Of a stretch of DNA of 49,690 bases, positions 17,694 to 49,690 are shown piece after piece. How positions within the stretch are numbered: the first letter of the stretch is position 1; the number at the start of each line of letters is the position of its first letter. The notes beneath the pieces are model-generated. The model searched no databases and was not told the DNA's origin. It saw only the letters and a program-made list of their open reading frames with translations. Position numbers and translations under genes: made by a program. This DNA is from a virus (lineage: Duplodnaviria > Caudoviricetes): IMG/VR virus record IMGVR_UViG_3300028585_000030, positions 1-49,690 of that record; one strand, 5' to 3'.

Positions 17694-18024
17694 CTCGTGC
17701 GCCGAGACCTTCGCCGCGTTCGTCGCGTCGCTCGACCCCGCCGAGGTCGAGCGGGAGCGCATGACCCCGCCGGCGCCGTCCGAGCACTTCGGCTCCCCGC
17801 AGTCCCGCCGGCAGCACGCCGAGCACGCCGCGAGGGCGGCCGTGTTCTGGCAGCAGGCCGAGCTCGTCGCCGCGATCCGCGCCGAGCGGCAGCGCGTCGA
17901 CGAGGGGTTCGTCGAGGCGATCCGCGAGGCCCGCCGGCTCGGCAGGCCGTACCCGCGCACCCCGATTGCCGAGACTCTCGCGCATCACCGGGCAGAATCA
18001 CTAGCAGGAGGACGAGCCGCATGA
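17686..18024 (+). CDS. Hypothetical protein
   Basis: Codon usage; ATGA coupling to next gene. Confidence 0.55.
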   Translation: MCDSCAETFAAFVASLDPAEVERERMTPPAPSEHFGSPQSRRQHAEHAARAAVFWQQAELVAAIRAERQRVDEGFVEAIREARRLGRPYPRTPIAETLAHHRAESLAGGRAA

Positions 18025-21880: not shown

Positions 21881-22194
21881 CCGAGCCCGCCGGCTGCCCG
21901 ACCCCCCGCGACGTCGCCGAGCGCCTCGCCGAGCAGGCCCGCCGCGAGCTCGCCCGCCGCCTCGCGGTCGTGCGATGGAACGAGCAGCTCGAAGCCGTCG
22001 TCGACATCGTCCTCGACGCCGAGGAGGCCGGCCGGGGCGTCATCATCACGACGACGGCCTGGCCGCCCACGATCGTCGCCCGCTCGACGACCTACGTCGG
22101 CCCGGGCCGCGCCGCCATCTTCCGCACCGATCACGTCGACCCCCGACCGATCTTCCGCACCATCCGCACCGACAACCTCAGGAGAACAGCATGA
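21877..22194 (+). CDS. Hypothetical protein
   Basis: GAGGAG RBS; coupling. Confidence 0.55.
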   Translation: MTEPAGCPTPRDVAERLAEQARRELARRLAVVRWNEQLEAVVDIVLDAEEAGRGVIITTTAWPPTIVARSTTYVGPGRAAIFRTDHVDPRPIFRTIRTDNLRRTA

Positions 22195-22747: not shown

Positions 22748-23115
22748 GCCGCCGGCAGAAGCGCGACACGAGGACCGTCACCTTCGTCGGCGGCCCCCGT
22801 GACGGCACGAGCGACCAGGCTCCCCGCGAGGCCGACGGGGTCCTCGACCAGACGGCGACGCCCTACGCCTTCCACCGGTACGCCGGCCCCGTCGGCGGCG
22901 GCTCGGCCGTGTTCACCTACGAGGGGCTCGTCGACCCCGACGGCGCCCCCACGACGATCGCGGCCGCGGTCGCCCTGTTCGAGTCCGAGATGGGCGAGGC
23001 GATCGCCGCGGCACGGGACACCGACGCCGCCTCCGGCGCCGACGGGATCGCGCTCGAACTCGAACGCGACGCCGAGATACGCGCCCGCGAGACCTTCGGG
23101 GGTGGCCGCCCGTGA
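22744..23115 (+). CDS. Hypothetical protein
   Basis: F.GGP.DG motif; couplings. Confidence 0.6.
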   Translation: MSRRQKRDTRTVTFVGGPRDGTSDQAPREADGVLDQTATPYAFHRYAGPVGGGSAVFTYEGLVDPDGAPTTIAAAVALFESEMGEAIAAARDTDAASGADGIALELERDAEIRARETFGGGRP

Positions 23116-23948
23116 GCCCCTACATCGCACCGCGCACCTCGGGCGAGATGATCGAGCGCCTCCGCCGCCACTACATCAAGCCGGGCGACCCCTTCGCCGG
23201 CGGCGCGTTCCTCACCGAAGTCGCCCTAGGCGATCGCCGTGCCGACGCCCTCTACGTCGGGTTCGCGAGCTCGCGCGGCGAGCACCTCATCGGCCACGAG
23301 GTCAAGGTGTCCCGCTCCGATTGGTTGCACGAGCTCGACCAGCCCGAGAAGGCCGAGAAGTGGGCCACCGAGTGCCATGCCTGGTACGTCGTCGCCCCGT
23401 CGACCGCGATCGTGCACGTCGCCGAGGTCCCCCACGGCTGGGGCCTCATGGTCCCGAACTCCCGCACCCGGACCCGCCTCGACATCGTCAAGGCGGCCGA
23501 GATACACCTAGACCGGCGCCCGTCGTGGGCGGCCACTCACGCGATCATCAAGAAGCAGGACACGATTCGCGCGCAGCTCGTCGGCGAGGAGAGCCGCAAG
23601 GTCGACGCGAAGCACCGTGGCGCGATCCTCCGCCTCGAACAGCGGGTCCGCGAGCTCGAAGCCGCAGCCCTCACCGACCAGCGAGCAGCCCGAGGGGCTC
23701 TCGCCATCGAGGAGGCTCTAGGAGCGAAGGTGAGCGCACCCGGCTACGGCGATCCCGCGCTCGTGTTCCCGGACGGCAGCCCGCTCAACTCCCGCGAGCT
23801 CGTCGCCACCCTCGCGACGTTCCTCGCGACGACGGCCACCGAGCGGAACGAGCTCGCCTCCTGGCGCATCCGCGACCTCACGCACACGGCCGAGTCTCTC
23901 CGGGCCGCGGCCGACGCCGCCGAGAAGGCAGCCGAGGTCCTCCGGTGA
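23112..23948 (+). CDS. MmcB-like PD-(D/E)XK nuclease with C-terminal coiled coil
   Basis: TEV...RRADAL...GHEVKVSRSDW..EL..PEK...W.V.AP...E.P.GWGL. Confidence 0.75.
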   Translation: MSPYIAPRTSGEMIERLRRHYIKPGDPFAGGAFLTEVALGDRRADALYVGFASSRGEHLIGHEVKVSRSDWLHELDQPEKAEKWATECHAWYVVAPSTAIVHVAEVPHGWGLMVPNSRTRTRLDIVKAAEIHLDRRPSWAATHAIIKKQDTIRAQLVGEESRKVDAKHRGAILRLEQRVRELEAAALTDQRAARGALAIEEALGAKVSAPGYGDPALVFPDGSPLNSRELVATLATFLATTATERNELASWRIRDLTHTAESLRAAADAAEKAAEVLR

Positions 23949-24295
23949 CCGCCGCAGCGCGCCGGCGGTTCGACCTCATGCTCGCCGTCGTCGAGCACGA
24001 CGCGACCGGGATGCCCGAGGCCGAGACCGCCCTCGAGGGAGCCCGGGCCGTGCTTCGCAAGCACCCCGACATCCCCCGCGGCGCGGCCCGCCTCGACGCG
24101 GCCGAGCAGCTCATGGCCGCCCGCCGCAGAGTCGTCGAGGAGTTCGGCGACGCGATCACAGACTGGGCGGAGGTCACGGCCGCGGCCACCGCCGCGATGG
24201 CCGAGTGGCAGCGCCTGTCCGCGGTCCTCGCTGACCTGTTCACGATCGAGCGGGACCCCGACACCGGGGTCTACCGGAAGCGGTACGGAGCATGA
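23945..24295 (+). CDS. Hypothetical protein
   Basis: GTGA/ATGA coupling. Confidence 0.6.
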   Translation: MTAAARRRFDLMLAVVEHDATGMPEAETALEGARAVLRKHPDIPRGAARLDAAEQLMAARRRVVEEFGDAITDWAEVTAAATAAMAEWQRLSAVLADLFTIERDPDTGVYRKRYGA

Positions 24296-24531
24296 CCGAG
24301 CCCACCTACGCCGAACTCATCAACCGGGCCGCCCCGCAGGCCCGCCCCCTCAGCCGCCGAGAGTGGCTCGTGTGGGCGTGCATCGTCGCCGGCATGACCC
24401 GCGGGCAGGCCGGCGAGTCCCTCGGCATCAGTGTCGAGACCGTCGCGACGTACCTCAAGCGGGTGCACATCAAGCTCGGGACGACAGGCCGCGGCCGCAC
24501 CGCGCTCGACAGGCCGGTCGACCATGACTGA
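24292..24531 (+). CDS. Stand-alone LuxR/GerE-family HTH regulator
   Basis: LSRRE..V....AGMT..Q.GESLGISVETVATYLKRVHIKLG. Confidence 0.85.
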   Translation: MTEPTYAELINRAAPQARPLSRREWLVWACIVAGMTRGQAGESLGISVETVATYLKRVHIKLGTTGRGRTALDRPVDHD

Positions 24532-24712
24532 CTCCGAGCCGTTCGCCTACACCTGCCCCCTCTGCCCGTTCTCGTTCGTCGGCCGCAACCTGTGGGCCTT
24601 CGACAGGGCGATCGCCGTCCACGACCACCTCGAACACGGCGCCCCGCTGCACGGCGGCGACGGCGTCGTCCCCACCGATCCGCCACAACCACCATCAGGA
24701 GAGACACCGTGA
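24524..24712 (+). CDS. Small C2H2-like Zn-binding protein
   Basis: CPLC......H..LEH. Confidence 0.5.
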   Translation: MTDSEPFAYTCPLCPFSFVGRNLWAFDRAIAVHDHLEHGAPLHGGDGVVPTDPPQPPSGETP

Positions 24713-25041
24713 AGCAGAAGAAGCACGACCGACTGGTCCGCGAAGCCGTCGCCCGAGCCGTCGCCGAGGCCCTCGCGCAGAGGACCGCGGAGGCCGTCGA
24801 GGCGAACACCAGGCGGACCGCCGAGCAGACCCGCGAGGACCTCGCCCTCATCGCCGCCGGCATGATCCCCGTCCGGGTTCTCCGCCGCTACGCGCTCCGC
24901 GGCAGCGCGAACCTCGTCCACGAGTTCGGCCGTGACATGCCACCCGAGACCACCTACTCCGTCCGGTTCCTCGGCTCCGACCCCGTCGTCGACGCCGCGT
25001 TCCGCGCGATCGACGCGGACCCCGACGAACTCCCGTTCTGA
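24709..25041 (+). CDS. Hypothetical protein with acidic C-terminal DPDELPF tail
   Basis: AGGAGA RBS. Confidence 0.65.
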   Translation: MKQKKHDRLVREAVARAVAEALAQRTAEAVEANTRRTAEQTREDLALIAAGMIPVRVLRRYALRGSANLVHEFGRDMPPETTYSVRFLGSDPVVDAAFRAIDADPDELPF

Positions 25042-25064
25042 CCACGACCACCAGGAGGCACACC

Positions 25065-25562
25065 ATGACCGACCAGCCCGTATCCACCCTCACCGTGCGC
25101 GGCCTCACCGCCGTCGACCTTCGCCGGGTCCTCGGCGTGATCCCGCTCCGGCCCGGCATCAGCATCGACGCGACCATCCCGCACGCCGAGCCCGCGCCCG
25201 ACGCTGATCCGCTCGTCATGCCGCCCACCATCACCGTCGCCGAGCTCGCGACCTACATCGTCGGGTTGCGGCCGGCGCGGGTGGCACTCGTCGCCCCGGC
25301 CGGCTCCCGCAGCAGCGCCCTCGGCAGCCTCGAAATGCTCGCCGTCATGCTCGGCTCCGAGCGGATCAAGAGCTACCAGCGCACGAACGGCCGGGAGGTC
25401 GTCGAGCTCTCGACCGGGCACACCGTGGCCGTGACCACCGCCGAGGAGGAGACCCGCCGCGGCGACGCCGCCACCGTCGTGTTCGTCGTGGCGCCGCGCG
25501 AGTACACCGCCGCGATGCACGCGCTCACTGCCACCGTCCCCTCGTTCACCCTCAACGACTAG
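25065..25562 (+). CDS. Protein with a degenerate terminase-ATPase-like C-terminal half
   Basis: AGGAGG RBS; gapless by-eye alignment to this phage's TerL (NG...RG...RE spacing conserved). Confidence 0.6.
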   Translation: MTDQPVSTLTVRGLTAVDLRRVLGVIPLRPGISIDATIPHAEPAPDADPLVMPPTITVAELATYIVGLRPARVALVAPAGSRSSALGSLEMLAVMLGSERIKSYQRTNGREVVELSTGHTVAVTTAEEETRRGDAATVVFVVAPREYTAAMHALTATVPSFTLND

Positions 25563-25571
25563 GAGCACGCC

Positions 25572-25937
25572 ATGACGACCAACAACCTCAACCTCATTGC
25601 GGCCCGAGCGGATGCCGCTTCGCCCGGCCCGTGGACTGTTGCCGGCGGCGAGCAGGACCTCGAGACCGGCACATGGGCCCCGACAGAAGTGATGGGCCCG
25701 CGCTGGCCGAACGACGAGGACTCTGAGTTCATCGCTCACGCGCGGCAGGACGTGCCCGCCCTCGTCGACGAGGTGCGCGAGCTCCGCGAGCTCGTCGCCG
25801 CGATCCGCTCGACAGGCGGCCTCCCGATCGACGAGTGGTGGCAGGCGATCCGGCAGCTCATCAGGGACCGCGACGCGCAGGAGGCCGTCGACCTCGTCGC
25901 CGCGACGACGGGCCCCGGATCGGAGCCGTGCTCGTGA
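25572..25937 (+). CDS. Ead/Ea22-like phage protein
   Basis: I.ARA.AASPGPW ... D.EFIAHARQDVPALVDEVRELR. Confidence 0.65.
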   Translation: MTTNNLNLIAARADAASPGPWTVAGGEQDLETGTWAPTEVMGPRWPNDEDSEFIAHARQDVPALVDEVRELRELVAAIRSTGGLPIDEWWQAIRQLIRDRDAQEAVDLVAATTGPGSEPCS

Positions 25938-26485
25938 CCGGCTTCTTCCTCTCGGCCGACTACCTCATGGGCTCGCCGTGGCTCCGGCAACTCCTCTCCG
26001 TCCGCGTCCGGCCGACGCCCGTCGTCCCCGTCGGCACGCCGATCCGAGTCGTCACGGGCGACATCTACGCGCACCCGCTCGACATCATCGCGATCGAGCA
26101 CCGCAACCCCCACGACCGCCTCGACGCCTCCGGGAAGTGGTTCGCCGAGCAGATCGCCGACCGGTTCGACGCCGCGGCCGCCCGCCTCGTCGACGCCGGC
26201 CGCTCCGACCGAGCGACCATCATCGCGAGTGACGTCAGCACCCGGACCGACTACGAGAGCCTCAGGGGGCAGACCGAACTGTTCCGCGAGTACCTACAGC
26301 ACGCCGGCCCCTACCCCGGGACCCCGACGAGCAGGCACGGGCACGGCATCGCGATCGACCTGCACCACGTCGACCGCGAGCCCTGGCACTTCACGCACCC
26401 GACCCCGGACACCATGACCGTCGACGAGGCCGACGCCGTGTTCCGCGAGCTGCACCGGCGCAGGAGGGGCCGGCCCCGTGCATGA
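25934..26485 (+). CDS. Protein with a degenerate M15 (D-Ala-D-Ala peptidase-like) motif set
   Basis: TSRHGHGIAID...REPWHF. Confidence 0.6.
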   Translation: MTGFFLSADYLMGSPWLRQLLSVRVRPTPVVPVGTPIRVVTGDIYAHPLDIIAIEHRNPHDRLDASGKWFAEQIADRFDAAAARLVDAGRSDRATIIASDVSTRTDYESLRGQTELFREYLQHAGPYPGTPTSRHGHGIAIDLHHVDREPWHFTHPTPDTMTVDEADAVFRELHRRRRGRPRA

Positions 26486-26768
26486 GTTCGCGGTCGACCT
26501 CGCCCGCACGACCGCGCTCCGCGAGCTCGCGCAGGCAGCCGACCGCCTCGCCGTGCAGCACTTCGCCGCGACCCCGCTCTACCTCGCGACGATGCTGACG
26601 ACGCGCGTGCTGCCCCGCACCATCACGATCGAGCACGACGAAGCACAGACCATGGACGAGGCCCTGTACTCTGTGCGCCGCCTCACCTGGATCGTCGAGG
26701 GGCCGGTCTACACTGACCGCGTCGAGGAGCTCCTGGAAGCACATCGACGGGCACAGCGCGACCCCTGA
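26478..26768 (+). CDS. Hypothetical protein
   Basis: AGGAGG upstream; codon usage. Confidence 0.55.
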   Translation: MHEFAVDLARTTALRELAQAADRLAVQHFAATPLYLATMLTTRVLPRTITIEHDEAQTMDEALYSVRRLTWIVEGPVYTDRVEELLEAHRRAQRDP

Positions 26769-26780
26769 TCGTCGCCCGCC

Positions 26781-26817
26781 CACGACGCCCCCGGCCTTCG
26801 CTCCCGGGGGCGTTGTG
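26781..26817 (+). terminator. Intrinsic terminator ending the early/middle operon
   Basis: cacgacgcccccgg...ccgggggcgttgtg hairpin. Confidence 0.7.
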
Positions 26818-26967: not shown

Positions 26968-26999
26968 AAGGCCCGCCGGTCGCGATACCGGCGGGCCTT
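26968..26999 (+). terminator. Perfect 13-bp hairpin in leader (terminator or attenuator)
   Basis: aaggcccgccggt-cgcgat-accggcgggcctt. Confidence 0.6.
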
Positions 27000-27827: not shown

Positions 27828-28009
27828 GCCGCGGCCTCGGGCACATCGCCGACCGGGTCGCCCTCGCCGTGGTCCGGGCAGCAGCCCGGCAGCGCGAGAC
27901 CGAGCTGCAGGGCATCCGGCAACGGGCCCGTGCACGGGAGACCCGGGACCAGCGCCCCGCCCTGCGGAGCATCCCCGGGGGCAGGCTCCCCGGGGGCCCC
28001 CGAGCATGA
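27824..28009 (+). CDS. Hypothetical basic protein
   Basis: GGGAG RBS; ATGA couplings. Confidence 0.45.
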   Translation: MSRGLGHIADRVALAVVRAAARQRETELQGIRQRARARETRDQRPALRSIPGGRLPGGPRA

Positions 28010-28356
28010 CCCCCCGCCCCGACAACGGGCTACCCCCCCGCCGGCCCCGCCCTCAGGCCACCCCCACCGGCATCGACGTGCCACCGTGGGGCGGACGCCG
28101 CGCACAGGAGGCCCTCGCACAGGTCAAGGCGAGGGGCCGGCGCGCGTCCCTGCCATGCGTCATCTGCTCACAGCCCATCGACTACGGCCTGACCTATCCA
28201 CACCAGGACTCGTGCAGCGTGCAGCACGTGAAGCCACGCAAGCGGTACCCCGAGCTCACGTGGGACCCGCGCAACTGGGAGCCATCGCACCTCGTCTGCA
28301 ACAAGCAGCAGGGCGAGCGCGACGCACCACCGTCGCTCGGCATCACGTCACTCTGA
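28006..28356 (+). CDS. Packaging-associated HNH endonuclease
   Basis: CVICSQPID...SVQHVKP....PEL..DP.N...SH..CN; just upstream of terminase. Confidence 0.85.
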   Translation: MTPRPDNGLPPRRPRPQATPTGIDVPPWGGRRAQEALAQVKARGRRASLPCVICSQPIDYGLTYPHQDSCSVQHVKPRKRYPELTWDPRNWEPSHLVCNKQQGERDAPPSLGITSL

Positions 28357-29066: not shown

Positions 29067-29458
29067 CCCTGCTCGAAGAGACCGACAAGGCGATCGCCGC
29101 AGCTCCGCACCTGCTCGACCCCCGCTACGCGGGGTCGCTGCAGGCCCTGCGGATGCTCGCCGGCAAGGCGGACCAGTGGCACAAGATCGTCGAGTACGCC
29201 ATCGAGGACATCGAGGGCGCCGACGGTCGCCGGCGGCCGGCGGTCCCGCAGAACGACAACACCACCCTGGCGAGCTACGCGAAGCTCTCCGAGCAACTCG
29301 GCCTGACCCCGATCGGCCGCAAGACCCTCGACGGGGTCGGCGGCGCGAACGGCGGGGCAGCATCACCAGCAGGCAAGACCGACGGCGCAGAGGAGGCGGG
29401 CACCAGTGGCAAGACGGGAAAGCTCGGCCTCATCACCCCGATCAGCGGTCCTAGATGA
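29063..29458 (+). CDS. terS: Terminase small subunit
   Basis: Position before TerL; DN.T...Y.K....LGLTP.GR motif. Confidence 0.8.
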   Translation: MTLLEETDKAIAAAPHLLDPRYAGSLQALRMLAGKADQWHKIVEYAIEDIEGADGRRRPAVPQNDNTTLASYAKLSEQLGLTPIGRKTLDGVGGANGGAASPAGKTDGAEEAGTSGKTGKLGLITPISGPR

Positions 29459-31283
29459 CCCCCGCGACGGCTCCTACCACGACGACGTCGTGCACGAGGG
29501 CTGGGAGCAGCTAGAGCCCGGCAAGCGGTACGGCCGCGCCGTGCCGCGCGTGTTCACCCCGCCGCTCCGCGAGCTCGTGCCCGAGGTCCGCGACGAGAGC
29601 GGCCGGATCACGCAGGAGGCGACGTCGTGGGGCTACCGCGTGATCGTGTTCGCCGCGGTCGTCCTCGAGATACGCCTCATGCCCTGGCAGAGGTGGCTCC
29701 TGATCCACATGCTCGAACTCGACCGCCGGGGCCGGCTTCGGTTCCAGACGGTCGTCGTGCTCGTCGCCCGGCAGAACGGCAAGTCGACCCTGTCGCAGGT
29801 CCTGTCCCTGTGGTTCATGATCGAGGCGAAGTGGCCCCTGGTCCTCGGGACCGCGCAGGACCTGACCACCGCCGAGGAGGTGTGGGAGGGCGCCGTCGCC
29901 CTGCTCGAAGATGACCCCGAGCTGACGACGCTGATCGCGAAGCTCTCGCAGCGCAACGGCAAGAAGATGGTCACGCTGACGAACGCGACCCGGTACCTCG
30001 TGAAGGCCGCGAGCCGGAAGGCCGGCCGCGGGCTCTCGGGGAACCTGATCCTCCTCGACGAGCTCCGCGAGCAGCAGAACTGGGCCGCGTGGGGCGCGAT
30101 CACGAAGACGACGAACGCGCAGACGGAGAGCCTCATCGTGGGGCTCTCGAACGCCGGCGACATCACGAGCGTCGTCCTCCGGTACCTCCGGCTCCTCGCG
30201 CACAAGGCGGTCGGCGACCCCGACGGCCTCCACCGCGACGTGCTGGGCGTGCTGCCCGGCCCGTCCGTCGTCGACGTCGACCCGATCGACCCCGAGGACG
30301 AGGACGAGGTCGACGAGCTCCTCGACGAGCTCGAACAGGACGAGGACACCCTGTTCCTCGCGGAGTGGTCGGCCATCCCCGGCATCGCCGTCAAGGATCG
30401 CGACGGCTGGGCGCAGGCTAACCCGGCCCTCGGGTACCGCGTGCAGGAGCGCAAGATCGCCGGCGACGCCCGCACCGACCCCGAGTGGATTTTCCGCACG
30501 GAGGTCCTCTGCCAGTGGTCGGACTCGACCCTCGAGGGGCCCTTCGCTCCCGGCTCCTGGGAGCAGGGCACGAACGAGCCGGTGCAGGCGACCGACATCG
30601 ACGGCGAGCCGCTCGTCGACGAGGACGGCAAGCCGGTCCCCGAGCTCGACGAGCGCGGTGCCCCGATCGTGCGCGAGGCCGACAAGATCGTCGGCCGGTT
30701 CGACGTGTGCATCGACCAGAGCAGCGACCGCGGCACCGTGTGGATCGTCGCCGTCGGCACCCGCCGCGACGGCAAGCAGCACGCCGAGGTCATGATCGGC
30801 CTGCCCGGCACCGACCGGGTCTCCGACTTCCTCCTCGACCCGGTCCGCCGCAGCCGCATCAACCGGGTCACCGGGCAGTGGCGAGGCGCCCCCATCAGCC
30901 TGTTCATGGCCGAGCTACAGAAGGACCCGAAGTTCCCTCTGGAAGTCGTCGAGTGGCAGGGCGGCGCCCTCACCGGAGGCACCGGCCTCCTCCTCGACGC
31001 CGTCCGTGACGTCACGGTCCGGCATCACAAGCAGCCCGCCCTCGACATCGCCGCAGCGACGGCCGTTCTCAAGCAGCTCGGCGGCGAGCAGGTCATCGAC
31101 CGGTTCGCCTCAGAGTCGGACGTGTCGCCCCTGATCGGCATGGCCGGCGCGCTGTGGCTCCACCGGCAGCGCAAGACCGCGCCGCCGCCTCCCCCGCCGC
31201 CTCCGGCGGTACTCCGCAAGACCGACGACGGCTCCGCCGGCGGGAACACCCTCACGGGTGACCTGTCCCGGATGTCGTTCTGA
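29406..31283 (+). CDS. terL: Terminase large subunit
   Basis: AGGAGG RBS; LMPWQ, Walker A VARQNGKS, Walker B ILLDE, coupling motif SNAG, W.QANPALG, FRTE.LCQW. Confidence 0.95.
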   Translation: MARRESSASSPRSAVLDDPRDGSYHDDVVHEGWEQLEPGKRYGRAVPRVFTPPLRELVPEVRDESGRITQEATSWGYRVIVFAAVVLEIRLMPWQRWLLIHMLELDRRGRLRFQTVVVLVARQNGKSTLSQVLSLWFMIEAKWPLVLGTAQDLTTAEEVWEGAVALLEDDPELTTLIAKLSQRNGKKMVTLTNATRYLVKAASRKAGRGLSGNLILLDELREQQNWAAWGAITKTTNAQTESLIVGLSNAGDITSVVLRYLRLLAHKAVGDPDGLHRDVLGVLPGPSVVDVDPIDPEDEDEVDELLDELEQDEDTLFLAEWSAIPGIAVKDRDGWAQANPALGYRVQERKIAGDARTDPEWIFRTEVLCQWSDSTLEGPFAPGSWEQGTNEPVQATDIDGEPLVDEDGKPVPELDERGAPIVREADKIVGRFDVCIDQSSDRGTVWIVAVGTRRDGKQHAEVMIGLPGTDRVSDFLLDPVRRSRINRVTGQWRGAPISLFMAELQKDPKFPLEVVEWQGGALTGGTGLLLDAVRDVTVRHHKQPALDIAAATAVLKQLGGEQVIDRFASESDVSPLIGMAGALWLHRQRKTAPPPPPPPPAVLRKTDDGSAGGNTLTGDLSRMSF

Positions 31284-31300: not shown

Positions 31301-32701
31301 ATGGCCGACGAGCCGAAGGTGCCCGCGACCGCGAAGGCCGCGAAGGCGTACCAGACAGAGGGCGGCGCATGGTGGGCGGGTCTCGACCAGAACGAGAACA
31401 CGCCCGAGCTCGTGTGGCCCCGATCGATCGAGGTCTACGACCTCATGAGGCGCACGGACCCGCAGATCCTTGCGATGTTCCGCGCGGTCACCCTGCCGAT
31501 CCGCCGCACGCAGTGGCGCATCGAGCCGAACGGGGCCCGCGCCGACGTCGTCAAGCTCGTCGCGGAGGACCTCGGGCTCCCGATCGTCGGCGACGACTCC
31601 ACGACGCCGCGGCACCTGAACCGCACGCGCGACCGGTTCGACTTCGCCGACTACCTCCGGCTCTCGCTCCTGAAACTCGTGTTCGGCCACAGCTTCTTCG
31701 AGCAGGTGTACCGGATCGAGCGGACCCCTACCGGCGCCCGTCAGGCCCGCCTCGGCAAGCTCCTCTGGATTCCGCCGCGCACCATCGGCGAGGTGAAGGT
31801 GGAGAGCGACGGCGGGCTCGCGCACATCAAGCAGCGCGAGGCGAAGAACGGGGTCAAGATCGAGGTAGGCGAGCTCGTCGCGCACGTGTCCGACCGCGAG
31901 GGCGGCAACTGGCTCGGCCAGAGCCTCCTCCGTCCGGCCTACAAGTTCTGGATTCTCAAGGACCGGCTCCTCCGCGTGCAGGCGCAGACGGTCGAGCGGA
32001 ACGGCATGGGCGTCCCCACGTTCACCGACCGCGACCACACCGCGAGCGGGCAGCTCGAACCGGACGAGGTCGCCGCCCGCGAGCAGGCCGGCATCGCGGC
32101 GGGCCTCGCGATCGCTCGCGCGTTCCGGTCGGGCGACACCGCCGGCGCCGCGCTCGTGAACGGACAGAGCCTGACCCTCAACGGCGTCGCCGGCAAGCTG
32201 CCCGACGCCATGACCCCGATCCGGTACTACGACGACCAGATCGCCCGCGCGTTCCTGGCGAACTTCCTCAGCCTCGGCGGCGACGACTCCACCGGGTCCT
32301 ACGCCCTCGGGAACACGTTCCGGGACTTCTTCACGATGAGCCTCGACACCGTCGCGTTGGAGTTCGCAGCGATCACGAACCAGCACGTCATCGAGGACCT
32401 CGTGGACCTCAACTTCGGCCGGGACGCGAAGGCGCCGCGGCTCGTGTTCGAGGACATCGCCTCGCAGCACGCCATCACCGCCGAGGGCATCCGAGCTCTC
32501 GTCGAGTGCGGCGCGCTGACCCCCGACGACGACCTCGAGGCGTACCTCCGCGACACCTCGCACCTCCCGAAGCGGGACCCGGACACTGCCCGGGTCAAGG
32601 CGCCCGCCGCGGCGCCGACCGCACCCGACCCGGCGCCCGCCGGCGACCCCGACACCGACACGGACACCGACACCGCCGACGGCGGAGAGGAGACATCATG
32701 A
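31301..32701 (+). CDS. Portal protein (DUF935/Mu gp29-like)
   Basis: E..PEL.WP.SI.VYD.MRRTD.Q, G.SLLRPAY..W..KD.L.R, ERNGMGVP, GSYALG. Confidence 0.9.
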   Translation: MADEPKVPATAKAAKAYQTEGGAWWAGLDQNENTPELVWPRSIEVYDLMRRTDPQILAMFRAVTLPIRRTQWRIEPNGARADVVKLVAEDLGLPIVGDDSTTPRHLNRTRDRFDFADYLRLSLLKLVFGHSFFEQVYRIERTPTGARQARLGKLLWIPPRTIGEVKVESDGGLAHIKQREAKNGVKIEVGELVAHVSDREGGNWLGQSLLRPAYKFWILKDRLLRVQAQTVERNGMGVPTFTDRDHTASGQLEPDEVAAREQAGIAAGLAIARAFRSGDTAGAALVNGQSLTLNGVAGKLPDAMTPIRYYDDQIARAFLANFLSLGGDDSTGSYALGNTFRDFFTMSLDTVALEFAAITNQHVIEDLVDLNFGRDAKAPRLVFEDIASQHAITAEGIRALVECGALTPDDDLEAYLRDTSHLPKRDPDTARVKAPAAAPTAPDPAPAGDPDTDTDTDTADGGEETS

Positions 32702-38584: not shown

Positions 38585-39081
38585 AGGCCCGGGTCGGCGC
38601 GTTCCTCGCCGATCGCGACCCGAGAGACCCGGCCGCCCTCATGGTGCGTGCCGTGGTCCTCGGGTCGCTCGCCGACCTCTACTTCGACGAGCTCGAAGGC
38701 TCTCTGGCCGCCGAGTTCGCACCCCGGGACCCGCTCGCCGAGTTCATCCGGTCCGAGCTCTCTCTGCGCGCCCTGCGGGTCCTGGTCGAGACCCTCCCCG
38801 CGACGTCGTCCCTCGCCCGCGCTCGCGCCGGCAACACGTGGACCGACGCCGAGTGGATCGCGCACGACATCGACTGGCAGCTCCGGCAGCTCATCGCGCT
38901 CACCTACAACGTGAACAGCGAGAAGGGCAAGAGCGCGCCCGACCCGACGCCGCTCCCGACGCCCCTCGACGAGGGCAACATCGTCGACGCCGTCGAGCTC
39001 GAATACCGCGACCAGCAGCGCGCCGAGATGGACGCGCTGGCCGAACGCATGTTTCAACCCCCCGCAGCACTGACCGAATAG
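38566..39081 (+). CDS. Tail assembly chaperone extension (T-like), -1 frame
   Basis: Overlapping ORF in the -1 frame without its own strong RBS; LSLR.LRVL...LP..S...W...E motif. Confidence 0.7.
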   Translation, partial: GPFEEVEARVGAFLADRDPRDPAALMVRAVVLGSLADLYFDELEGSLAAEFAPRDPLAEFIRSELSLRALRVLVETLPATSSLARARAGNTWTDAEWIAHDIDWQLRQLIALTYNVNSEKGKSAPDPTPLPTPLDEGNIVDAVELEYRDQQRAEMDALAERMFQPPAALTE

Positions 39082-39092
39082 GAGGCCCGCCC

Positions 39093-42000
39093 GTGGCCGG
39101 TTCCGCCGTATGGGTCGACGTGCTCCCCTCCATGGGGAAGTTCTCGACCAACCTGACACGCGACGCGAGCTCGGCCGCGGCGACCGCCGGCGTGGCCGCG
39201 GGTCGCTCGTTCGACGGCGGCTTCGCCGACGCGAGCGGGAAGGGCTCGGCCGCCGGCAAGATTCTCGGCGGGATCGCCGGCGCGACCGCCTCCGCGGCGA
39301 AGGTCATCGGCGGCGGCATCGCCGGCATCGGCCTCGCCGTGGGCGGGCTCTCCGCGCAGAAGGGCCTCTCGAGGCTCCTCGACATCGACGACGCGCAGGG
39401 CAAGCTGAAGGGGCTGGGGCACTCCGTCGACGGCATCGCGACGATCATGGATAGCGCCCTGGCGTCCGTGAAGGGGACGGCCTTCGGGCTCGGGGACGCC
39501 GCGACGGTCGCCGCCTCCGCAGTCGCCGCCGGCATCAAGCCGGGGCAGGACCTGACGAAGTACCTCAGCCTCACGGCCGACGCCGCCACGATCGCGGGCA
39601 CCTCGCTCGACGAAATGGGCGCGATCATCAACAAGACGACGAGCACGGGCAAGGTCTACACCGACAACCTCAACCAGCTCGCCGACCGCGGCATCCCGAT
39701 CTTCCAGTGGCTACAGGAGGAGTACGGCACGAGCGCCGAGGGGCTCTCGAAGATGGTCAAGGAGGGCAAGGTCGACGCCGAGACCTTCCGCCGCGTCATC
39801 GAGGAGAACATCGGTGGGGCGGCCCTCGCCTCCGGGCAGACGGTCCGCGGCGCCTTCGCGAACACCGGTGCAGCCTTCGGCCGGCTCGGCGCGATGTTCC
39901 TGAAGGGCGGGGTGCAGGCCGCGCCCGTCCTGTTCACGGCCATCACCGGAGCCGTCGATCGCGCCGGGACCGCCCTGGCGCCCTTCGCCGACGCCCTCGG
40001 GGTCAAGGTCGTCGCCGGGCTCACGGCCGTCGCCGGATGGATCGACCGCGTCGACTTCCAGAAGATCGTCGACGGCGCCTCCGGGCTCTACGACCTCATC
40101 GTCGGCGGCGACTTCTCGGGCAAGCTCACGAACGCCTTCGGGTTGCAGGAGGACTCCGGCTTCGTCGACTTCATCCTGACCGCGCGCGACGCCATCTCCG
40201 GGCTCTACAGCCTGGTCGTGGGCGGCGACTTCACCGGCGCCTTCGCGCGGGCCTTCAACGTCGAGGAGGACTCCCCGGTCGTCGGCATGATCCTCGACGT
40301 CCGCTCCGCCTTCGGCGACCTGTTCTCGGCCATCGGCAGCGGCGACCTCGACGGGGCGAAGGCTGCCCTGGGCGGCATCGCCGACGCCGGCGGACCGCTC
40401 TCGTCGCTCCTCGGCAGCGCGGCCGGCGGGTTCGGGCAGATCGCCGGCGCCGTCGGCGACCTGTTCGTCGCCGGCCTGCCCCTGATCCCGGCCCTCATCG
40501 ACGCCGCGGCGCAGGTGATGGGCTTCCTGGCCGACAACAGCAGCCTGGTCCTCCCGATCATCATCGCGATCGCCGCCGGCTTCGTGCTCTACCGCACGAG
40601 TCAGGTCGCCGCGAACGCCGCGATGGTCGCCGGCCTCCCGATCCGCGTCGCCTCGATCGCCGCCGACGTCGCGCGCACGATCGCGCTCAACAACTCGACG
40701 AAGGCGACCATCGCGCAGATGGGTATCGAGAAGGCGTCGGCCGGCACCCGCATCGCGGCCACCGGCTCGATCACCGCGGCGACCGTAGCGACGAACGGGT
40801 TCGGCTGGGCGCAGCGCGCGTCCGCGGTCGCCTCCGCGATCGCCGCGGGCGGCATGCGCCTCCTCGGCGGCGCCGTCCGCTTCGCGCTCGGGCCGATCGG
40901 TCTCATCATCACGGCCGTCGGCCTGCTCGTCGCCGGAGTCATCTGGGCCTACAACAACGTCGGCTGGTTCCGCGACGGCGTCAACGGCGCTTTCGCCGGG
41001 ATCATGGTCGCCGTGCACGCCCTCGGCGACGCCGGGGTGTGGCTGTGGGAGAACGCCCTGAAGCCGGCCTGGGACGCGATCGCGGCCGGGGCGACCTGGC
41101 TGTACGAGACCATCCTCCGGCCGGCCTTCGACGGCATCTCGATCGCCGTGCAGGCGGTCGGCGCCGTCGTCGGCATCTACATCGGCGTCTGGGTGACCAT
41201 CTTCCAGGCGATCGGCACCGCGGCCGTCTGGCTGTGGCAGACCATCCTCGAGCCCGTTTTCTCCGGGATCGCGGCCGTCGTGTCGTGGTTCTGGTCCGTC
41301 GCCTCGGCCGTGTTCGACCTGCTCGTCCACGTCCTCGTGTTCGTGGTCGGCGCGGCCGTGACCTGGCTCTGGGAGTCGATCATCTCGCCCGTGTTCACCT
41401 GGATCGGTGACAAGGTCTCGACCTTCTGGCTCGGGGCGCAGATCGTGTTCGGGGCCCTGGTCTCGTTCGTCCGCGACACCCTCGGCGCCGTTTTCTCGTG
41501 GCTGTGGGACTCGATCATCTCCCCCGTTTTCACCTGGATCAGCAACCGCATCGACCTGTTCTGGACCGGAGCCCAGATCATCTTCGCGGCCGTGACGGGG
41601 TACGTCCGAGACACCCTCGGGCCGATCTTCACCTGGCTCTACGAGAACGCAATCCGCCCGGCGTGGGACGGCATCAGCTCGGCCATCTCGACCGTCTGGG
41701 GCTTCATCTCGCCGATCTTCGACAAGCTCAAGACCGTCATCATGACGGACCTGCCTAACGCCTTCACGACCGGACGCGACGCCATCGGCACCGCGTGGGA
41801 AGGGCTAAAGGAGCTGGCGAAGGCCCCGATTAAGTTCGTCGTCGACACGGTCATTAACGACGGGCTCATCGGCAACTTCAACAAGGTCGCGGACTTCTTC
41901 GGCTCGAAGAAGATACCGACGATCAAGCTCCCGGACGGGTTCGCCGGCGGTGGCATCATCCCGGGCTATCAGTCGCAGAAGCGCGACGACGTGATGATGC

Positions 42001-43061
42001 CTATGAGGCGGGGCGAGGGCGTCCTGGTCCCCGAGGTCGTCAAGGGCCTCGGCCCCGGGTTCGTCCACTCCCTGAACGCCGCGGGCAACCGAGGCGGCGC
42101 CTCCGCAGTCCGCTCGCTCGCCACCGTCCGCCCCGGCCTCGCCGAGGGTGGCATCGTCGGCGGTGCGATCGACTGGGTGCGCAACGCGGCCGACGCGGCC
42201 GGGCGCTTCGTGTCCGACCCGCTCGGCACGATGTCGAGTGTGATCGACGGCCTCACGGCGCAGATTCCCGGCGCCGAGGGGCTCGTCGCTCTCGCGAAGG
42301 GCGCCACGGGCAAGCTCGTCGAGGCAGCGGTCGACGCCATCAAGGGGCTCATGCCCTCAGGAGGCGCGGCCGGCGCGATCGGCAGCAACGGCAGCCTGCC
42401 CGCCGGCATGTTGCAGCGCGTGGCGAACTTCACCGGAGGCCCCGGCGTCGGACCCATGGGCGGCTACCTCCGCAGCGACGCCGCCCGGGCGCTGCAACTC
42501 GCCGAGTCCGCGAAGGGCGGGCCGCTCGCCCTGACCGAGGGCTACCGCGACCTCGCCTCGCAGCAGATGAGGTGGGCGCAGTTCCGGGCCGGCACGGGCA
42601 ACCTCGCCGCGGCGCCTGGCACCTCGAACCACGGGTACGGGCTCGCCGGCGACTTCGCCACGAGCGCCCAGGGGTGGCTCCGCACGAACGGGCCCCGCTT
42701 CGGGTGGTACCCGACGGGCCTCGGGTTCTCGCAGCGGGAGCCGTGGCACTTCGACTACAAGGGCAAGGCCGACACCTCCGCCGGGATGCACGAGGGCGGC
42801 GTCATCGAGCCGACCCTGTACGACGAGGGCGGGGTCCTGCCCCGCGGTGTCTCCGTGATCGCGAACCGCACTCGCAAGCCGGAATACAACCTGCCCGAGG
42901 GCCGGCTGATCGACGTCGTCCGCAAGGCGTCGGCCGCCGAGCTCGGCGAGCAGGGGCCCCTCATCGGGTCGCTCACCTTGCAGAGCTCGGGCGACCTCCA
43001 CGAGGACCTCGCCGAGGTCAACCACAACATCCGCACCCTCAGGAGAGGAGGTCGACCGTGA
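39093..43061 (+). CDS. Tape measure protein with C-terminal M15-family peptidase
   Basis: AGGAGG RBS; tape-measure N-domain (VKGTAFGL, LNQLADRGIPI), Trp-periodic repeats, GYR...PGTSNHGYGLAGD...EPWH. Confidence 0.92.
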   Translation: MAGSAVWVDVLPSMGKFSTNLTRDASSAAATAGVAAGRSFDGGFADASGKGSAAGKILGGIAGATASAAKVIGGGIAGIGLAVGGLSAQKGLSRLLDIDDAQGKLKGLGHSVDGIATIMDSALASVKGTAFGLGDAATVAASAVAAGIKPGQDLTKYLSLTADAATIAGTSLDEMGAIINKTTSTGKVYTDNLNQLADRGIPIFQWLQEEYGTSAEGLSKMVKEGKVDAETFRRVIEENIGGAALASGQTVRGAFANTGAAFGRLGAMFLKGGVQAAPVLFTAITGAVDRAGTALAPFADALGVKVVAGLTAVAGWIDRVDFQKIVDGASGLYDLIVGGDFSGKLTNAFGLQEDSGFVDFILTARDAISGLYSLVVGGDFTGAFARAFNVEEDSPVVGMILDVRSAFGDLFSAIGSGDLDGAKAALGGIADAGGPLSSLLGSAAGGFGQIAGAVGDLFVAGLPLIPALIDAAAQVMGFLADNSSLVLPIIIAIAAGFVLYRTSQVAANAAMVAGLPIRVASIAADVARTIALNNSTKATIAQMGIEKASAGTRIAATGSITAATVATNGFGWAQRASAVASAIAAGGMRLLGGAVRFALGPIGLIITAVGLLVAGVIWAYNNVGWFRDGVNGAFAGIMVAVHALGDAGVWLWENALKPAWDAIAAGATWLYETILRPAFDGISIAVQAVGAVVGIYIGVWVTIFQAIGTAAVWLWQTILEPVFSGIAAVVSWFWSVASAVFDLLVHVLVFVVGAAVTWLWESIISPVFTWIGDKVSTFWLGAQIVFGALVSFVRDTLGAVFSWLWDSIISPVFTWISNRIDLFWTGAQIIFAAVTGYVRDTLGPIFTWLYENAIRPAWDGISSAISTVWGFISPIFDKLKTVIMTDLPNAFTTGRDAIGTAWEGLKELAKAPIKFVVDTVINDGLIGNFNKVADFFGSKKIPTIKLPDGFAGGGIIPGYQSQKRDDVMMPMRRGEGVLVPEVVKGLGPGFVHSLNAAGNRGGASAVRSLATVRPGLAEGGIVGGAIDWVRNAADAAGRFVSDPLGTMSSVIDGLTAQIPGAEGLVALAKGATGKLVEAAVDAIKGLMPSGGAAGAIGSNGSLPAGMLQRVANFTGGPGVGPMGGYLRSDAARALQLAESAKGGPLALTEGYRDLASQQMRWAQFRAGTGNLAAAPGTSNHGYGLAGDFATSAQGWLRTNGPRFGWYPTGLGFSQREPWHFDYKGKADTSAGMHEGGVIEPTLYDEGGVLPRGVSVIANRTRKPEYNLPEGRLIDVVRKASAAELGEQGPLIGSLTLQSSGDLHEDLAEVNHNIRTLRRGGRP

Positions 43062-49494: not shown

Positions 49495-49690
49495 GAAGCG
49501 TCCTCGGCGGGGTCCGCCGCGTGGCCCGCGCGTCCATCTGGGCCCGAGGCTCGGTCTCCGCCGAGGACGCCCGGCTCTCGCGCCTGCTCCGCCGCACGCT
49601 GCCCGAGTTCTACATCGCCATGTGGGCCTTCGGCTCGCTCGGCGTGCTCGGCGGCGTCCCGGCCCTCCGGCAGACCTTTGGGCAGGACTA
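49491..49690 (+). CDS. 5' part of the membrane protein that ends at 423 across the junction
   Basis: GTGA overlap with holin stop; open frame runs into the terminal repeat. Confidence 0.7.
   Translation, partial: MRSVLGGVRRVARASIWARGSVSAEDARLSRLLRRTLPEFYIAMWAFGSLGVLGGVPALRQTFGQD
49542..49690 (+). repeat. Terminal direct repeat, right copy
   Basis: Matches 1-149 with 3 mismatches. Confidence 0.95.

Follow-up and report, generated by a model that had tools for sequence, protein, structure and literature searches.

Several enterobacterial phages encode small, stand-alone proteins that resemble the ATPase core of the large terminase subunit (TerL), namely, vs.8 of T4, Ksap1 of Dhillonvirus and Ksap2 of Stephanstirmvirinae; these proteins are reported to be lineage-restricted, their native function is open and, when tested, they activate Avs2 and do not block it (PMC13601566; PMC11564622). 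The 2026 paper among these treats what small terminase-like phage proteins do as an unanswered question, and it states that the TerL ATPase domain alone activates EcAvs2 and Upx, that Avs2 and Avs3 contact the terminase-bound ATP, and that activation of Upx mostly survives catalytic mutations (PMC13601566). For the actinophage Adephagia, a terminase-like structural note has been published on the early gene product gp85, which its authors judged not confident, along with a Foldseek match of gp3 to TerL (5e-3) (PMC11373665).

The window analyzed here is a virus record of 49,690 bases, with completeness rated at 100%, whose TerL is nearest to those of Arthrobacter phages such as Ryan (53% identity). 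A stretch of this window (24709-26485), located inside a run of non-structural genes, contains four ORFs on the + strand, denoted A to D (Table 1), and is situated 1.5-3.3 kb ahead of an HNH-type gene and the packaging genes. A preliminary description had read this stretch as a candidate decoy module, a cluster of inactive duplicates of late proteins from the same phage, with likenesses to the portal (A), TerL (B) and the peptidase domain of the tape measure protein (D). Of the three claims, the one on B holds fully.

Table 1. Positions of ORFs A to D and of the downstream genes and domains discussed in the text (window coordinates)
Feature	Position	Strand	Description
ORF A	24709..25041	+	110 aa; function not assigned; gene with relatives, not portal-like
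ORF B	25065..25562	+	165 aa; stand-alone pseudo-ATPase, homologue of the TerL ATPase core
ORF C	25572..25937	+	121 aa; common phage accessory family; between B and D; absent from the preliminary description
ORF D	25934..26485	+	183 aa; stand-alone, shortened M15/VanY-type zinc peptidase homologue
HNH-type gene	28006..28356	+	label from motif reading of the translation; precedes the packaging genes, ~2.4 kb 3' of B
TerL, intact	29406..31283	+	Walker A ARQNGKS at 120-127, R208, Walker B D218-E219
TerL segment homologous to B	29850-30113	+	about residues 149-236
Mu-like portal	31301..32701	+	PF06074, E 8.9e-46; reference for the portal likeness of A
Tape measure protein	38838-43061	+	contains a VanY/M15 domain
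VanY/M15 domain in tape measure protein	42477..42764	+	PF02557, E 3.5e-6, above the curated cut-off; reference for D

Between positions 22000 and 29500, no sigma-70 promoter and no excess of terminators were detected. Upstream of ORF A, we observed a gene for a 278-aa protein (23112-23948; phrog_14517, E 3e-51; 'DNA repair protein' family phrog_5429, E 3e-19), a LuxR/GerE-type HTH gene (24292-24531; PF00196, E 3e-10) and, directly adjacent to A, a 62-aa protein with a CxxC motif and two histidines (24524-24712). On the other side lies ORF E (26478-26768, 96 aa), which carries many indels in one related contig where D is conserved, and the gap 3' of it contains two GC-rich inverted repeats, possibly regulatory (about 26784-26813 and 26968-26999). 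A DNA repeat links ORF C (25787-25852) to an upstream gene (17859-17924; 69 columns, 80% identity, E 1e-7), and the same translated match at 37-69 and 49578-49610 suggests a short terminal repeat, the record being classed as linear.

Direct pairwise comparison of B with the TerL of the window yields a weak signal (z 3.0, p 0.01; hhalign probability 2%), and no notable similarity between B and terL was found at the DNA level. Among the 80 pairs scored, B with TerL did no better than the spurious pair of D with TerL (z 3.1), so z values near 3 were not accepted as evidence of homology. The first lead came from a library scan in which phrog_6910 faintly matched both TerL and B (the latter at an E of only 0.091). 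Searched over four genomes, phrog_6910 retrieved B (E 1.4e-3), the TerL of each genome, and small, stand-alone genes of phages Eesa (E 5e-13) and Ryan (E 1e-7); matches at E <= 1 also appeared in 2 of 14 control genomes. A family profile of 16 stand-alone proteins, constructed with neither B nor any full-length TerL, placed B at the top of the 693 frames of the window (E 9.4e-5), with TerL next (E 0.011); none of 2000 shuffles of B reached the score of the actual sequence, and in profile-profile comparison with hhalign, the family matched B and TerL at E 2.3e-5 each. Reciprocally, a profile of the TerL ATPase core, which included 7 of 13 TerLs, that of the window among them, and left out the six missed by the motif pattern, ranked B second of the 693 frames (15.9 bits, E 3.7e-4), with the next frame at 3.2 bits. 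The AlphaFold model of B has a mean pLDDT of 61, with core blocks at 72-84, and the top 50 viral matches to it in a Foldseek search include 19 named terminases and 14 proteins of 103-155 aa (best E 8.6e-5). Because the alignment behind the model contained family members and no full-length TerL, the matches to the family are partly circular, and those to terminases less so. Atlas features of B agree with this likeness. When PDB sequences were searched with B, with D and with the family profile, nothing meaningful was matched. The reciprocal profiles and the Foldseek search thus bear out the TerL likeness, and B is a homologue of the TerL ATPase core.

This core occupies about residues 58-160 of B, behind an N-terminal extension of roughly 55 aa that is modeled with low confidence. 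The strand-helix-hairpin core leading into the Walker B strand is homologous to that of the TerL ATPase domain, and both the NG hairpin (N108-G109) and the RG motif (R132-G133) are retained. Unlike TerL, B lacks the GK[ST] of Walker A in the TerL-core alignment, has lost the Asp-Glu of Walker B (VVFVVAPRE vs LILLDELRE), and contains neither the lid nor the nuclease, as the ORF stops about 25 residues past the Walker B strand. A GGAGG ribosome-binding site precedes B, and its GC3 is 0.96. Both of its close relatives (89% and 79%) are intact, full-length and share the start and end of B. In wider searches, none of A, B and D had a tblastn match at E <= 1 among 50,697 phage records, pattern scans of viral contigs for the same three ORFs found nothing, and a metagenome scan for B recovered the identical locus only; a viral scan for the TerL returned one match, at 100%.

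Proteins similar to phrog_6910, stand-alone and 110-190 aa long, are widespread in phages of Actinobacteria. Four seeds matched 48, 37, 99 and 187 phage records, respectively, with overlap between the sets and many true terminases in the last of them. On the profile evidence, B is a divergent member of this family: Eesa gp1, Ryan gp2, SanaSana gp31, Bipper gp131, Ohgeesy gp84 and Adephagia gp85 have in common with B the core, the NG hairpin and the RG motif, and, as with B, the proteins stand alone in phages that possess an intact TerL. B differs from them by far greater divergence (16-26% identity to family members), by its N-terminal extension, and by its location several genes upstream of the packaging module. 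Among 23 hand-picked members, not one has both the Walker A GK[ST] and the Walker B DE intact, whereas RG is kept in 19, as it is in B; NG and RG, which are TerL-specific, persist across very divergent members. The family is kept even in genomes of 15-17 kb. Most of the 23 members (16) lie within three genes of terS/terL or of a terminal HNH gene, the other 7 are away from packaging genes, and some adjoin Cas4 or RtcB genes. Annotations vary from hypothetical protein to AAA-ATPase, DNA helicase, DNA binding protein and terminase; of the members named above, gp85 alone has a published structural hint of terminase likeness.

Some individual family members deserve mention. Three proteins annotated as AAA-ATPase (L016:3444-3824, L030:2465-2881 and L033:1252-1698) keep Walker A and have DD in place of DE, which suggests forms that bind ATP without hydrolyzing it. 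In P0028 (207 aa), an HNH domain is fused ahead of the TerL-like part; as just one sequence shows this, on a contig of 1330 bp, the fusion could be a read-through or an assembly artifact. Adephagia gp3 (L035:476-730, 84 aa) might be a second, shorter TerL-like fragment that covers only the stretch from RG to Walker B (profile E 0.04-0.05); it is not part of the 23-member count.

In a tree of 39 rows and 126 columns, from which the gp3 fragment was left out, the branch of B is long and unresolved, and it falls outside the clade, itself fully supported, that holds the TerL of the window. The topology with B and its own TerL as sisters was rejected (p-AU 0.026), and those placing B with all the small stand-alone proteins (p-AU 0.37) or with the wider clade of six TerLs (p-AU 0.19) were not. 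Given the rejection of sisterhood, a recent self-duplication is an unlikely origin, and B is unlikely to be a recent copy of the TerL of this phage. In the same tree, a single supported clade unites Bauer gp2, Zucker gp1 and AbbyDaisy gp1, and the AbbyDaisy TerL groups apart. We further compared the slot of B with related contigs from 4 of the 17 listed runs, aligned on 24500-26800. In both contigs that bridge the slot, it is filled by other DNA (785 and 642 letters), with A and D sequence kept on the flanks; the replacement may encode a very divergent homologue of B. Since the slot is swapped in both cases, B is not co-inherited with A and D, and A, B and D form no fixed module.

ORF D presents a different case. 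A profile of five M15 domains from outside the window, run over the same 693 frames, ranked the tape measure protein first and D second (E 1.2e-5; 0 of 2000 shuffles), so that its M15 likeness, too, is genuine. The motif pattern SxH-x6-D...ExWH, characteristic of M15B/VanY peptidases (PF02557; phage endolysin and tape-measure domains), occurs only in the frames of D and the tape measure protein. In D, it comprises S133-x-H135, D142 and E149-P-W-H152, so that all three zinc ligands and the catalytic Glu are present. These roles, and that of the arginine discussed below, are those established for M15 enzymes, and the PDB alignments are consistent with them. In P0005, a relative 84% identical to D, H135, D142, E149 and H152 are unchanged and several neighboring residues vary; its profile score is 8.8 bits vs 20.8 bits for D. 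Unlike M15B/VanY peptidases, D falls below the Pfam cut-off and has only 6 residues between the Asp and the Glu, compared to 27-34 in 6 of 6 references, a loss of 21-28 residues that removes the helix and strand between the Asp and ExWH. The catalytic Arg of the GYR motif is ambiguous: MAFFT places E108 at this position, and the alternative is R104, which is kept in P0005 and lies 31 residues before H135 (25-34 in the references). Structure models of D are poor (AlphaFold pLDDT 34; atlas model pLDDT 0.44, no fold match), no strongly hydrophobic segment is present, and a genome scan for D found nothing; D resembles clusters of stand-alone viral proteins of 149-160 aa (scores 0.92-0.93). The preliminary description took both enzyme-like copies to lack catalytic elements, which is correct for B, with its missing Walker A and Walker B Asp-Glu, and mostly incorrect for D. 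As the zinc ligands and catalytic Glu are retained, we do not call D dead: it may be a minimal active or an impaired peptidase, and it is most likely a minimal zinc peptidase or a peptide-binding protein with a role of its own.

ORF C belongs to a common accessory family (phrog_1667, E 7.5e-10; phrog_722, E 1.1e-9). The similarity of A to the portal C-terminus had to be abandoned as a chance resemblance: the BLASTP alignment (E 0.23) involves another segment, shuffled sequences score on average as high in local alignment (z -0.03), and family scans found no portal family match. A is nevertheless a real gene, being carried by related contigs.

What might B do? Our tentative reading, the likeliest of those considered though we give it somewhat less than an even chance, is that B acts as a non-catalytic competitor for host proteins that detect terminase, with A, C and D being separate accessory genes. 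Under this scenario, B would retain the surface that the beta-sheet and helices of the ATPase core form, would hold no ATP, and is devoid of lid and nuclease. It could thus partly fill the pocket of a sensor of the Avs or Upx type without making all the contacts required for activation, and so would shield the real TerL produced simultaneously or later. Rapid divergence and a patchy distribution would fit a host-directed role, as would the swappable slot and the lack of ties to the cognate TerL. By analogy, the activation of Avs2 by Ksap1, Ksap2 and vs.8 speaks against B being a blocker, as do the activation of EcAvs2 and Upx by the isolated ATPase domain and the tolerance of Upx activation to most catalytic mutations; those three proteins come from enterobacterial phages, and vs.8 is reported to keep Walker A and Walker B, whereas B has neither (PMC13601566; PMC11564622). 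Also against the competitor reading, B is an outlier of its family, with its low identity to the other members, long branch and marginal phrog_6910 match, and the proximity of most members to terS/terL or HNH genes, together with the HNH fusion, fits a packaging role equally well. The broader proposition, that actinophages widely carry terminase decoys that block Avs- or Upx-type sensors without activating them, is speculative and, in our estimate, rather unlikely; the decoys would make up a graded pseudo-ATPase family, which at one end has forms that bear Walker A and carry Asp instead of the catalytic Glu and at the other end bare cores like B.

An actual packaging role, the main rival reading, which we regard as improbable though deserving serious consideration, would make B a regulator: a half-subunit, bound to TerL or to the HNH cofactor, that caps the assembly of the motor or the cleavage of ends, or sets their timing. 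It would act by way of the RG arginine that B has kept, possibly the face of a trans-acting finger. Apart from the gene neighborhood and the P0028 fusion, the persistence of RG in B and most of the family is consistent with such a function. A trans-acting arginine finger is documented for R139 of phage P74-26 (PMC5727402; 10.1101/080440). The RG arginine may correspond to R139, a tentative equivalence that depends on a Walker B numbering (D149, E150) not found in those passages. In HK97, however, the finger-position residue K140, which our alignment places three residues before the RG position, is reported to be dispensable (PMC9410871). Moreover, the members do not track the cognate TerL, 7 of the 23 are away from packaging genes, Adephagia gp85 is early, the slot of B is swappable, and the fusion is known from that one short contig.

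To much the same degree improbable is a repurposed fold, with a role outside terminase mimicry, such as binding of another host or phage protein, a nucleic acid or a nucleotide, and with any recognition by Avs incidental. The private N-terminal extension of B and the location of some members beside Cas4 or RtcB genes are compatible with repurposing, as is the suggestion by Evans et al. that Ksap1, Ksap2 and vs.8 may be anti-defense proteins directed against other systems (PMC13601566). No alternative partner or conserved neighbor was found, however, and the persistence of the TerL-specific NG and RG motifs speaks against this reading. That B is a decaying, functionless remnant of a captured terminase gene seems very improbable: its very long branch, the existence of only two close relatives and its absence from related contigs could be read that way, but the relatives are full-length with shared ends, the GC3 and ribosome-binding site are those of a well-kept gene, and the family is retained in minimal genomes. 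Least credible of all, and largely refuted, is a single co-inherited decoy module in which A, B and D would imitate the portal, the terminase and the tape-measure peptidase. In its favor, B and D lie within 1.4 kb of each other, both have genuine homologues in the late gene products of this phage, and A and D stay together in relatives. Against it, A is not portal-like, D keeps its metal site, B is replaced in both bridging contigs, its sisterhood to its own TerL is rejected, and the ordinary accessory gene C intervenes between B and D. The view of the locus as a cluster of inactivated late-protein copies is not supported on the same grounds, the literature passages covered mention no defense that senses M15 domains, and the idea of mimicry survives for B only, not for a three-gene cluster.

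In the literature covered, from which most subscription papers are absent, neither this actinophage family nor any inhibitor of Avs that mimics terminase was found to be described, and passages of the EVADES preprint (10.1101/2025.06.06.658234) mention no such family or inhibitor. Small terminase-like phage proteins are already known, with their function open; the dead mini-terminase family in actinophages is real and testable. Terminase is a near-universal trigger of bacterial pattern-recognition defenses, and the family described here, large and confined in these data to actinophages, has lost its catalytic motifs by degrees and is represented in the cultured, tractable phages Adephagia, Eesa, Ryan and Whytu, in which the decoy and packaging-regulator ideas are separable. 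The findings also suggest that, in these phages, one non-catalytic family lies behind several annotations as 'AAA-ATPase', 'DNA helicase' or a second 'terminase'. If the broader proposition of widespread decoys is true, these proteins would exemplify a general form of counter-defense by PAMP mimicry, which could also explain the existence of vs.8 and the Ksap proteins.
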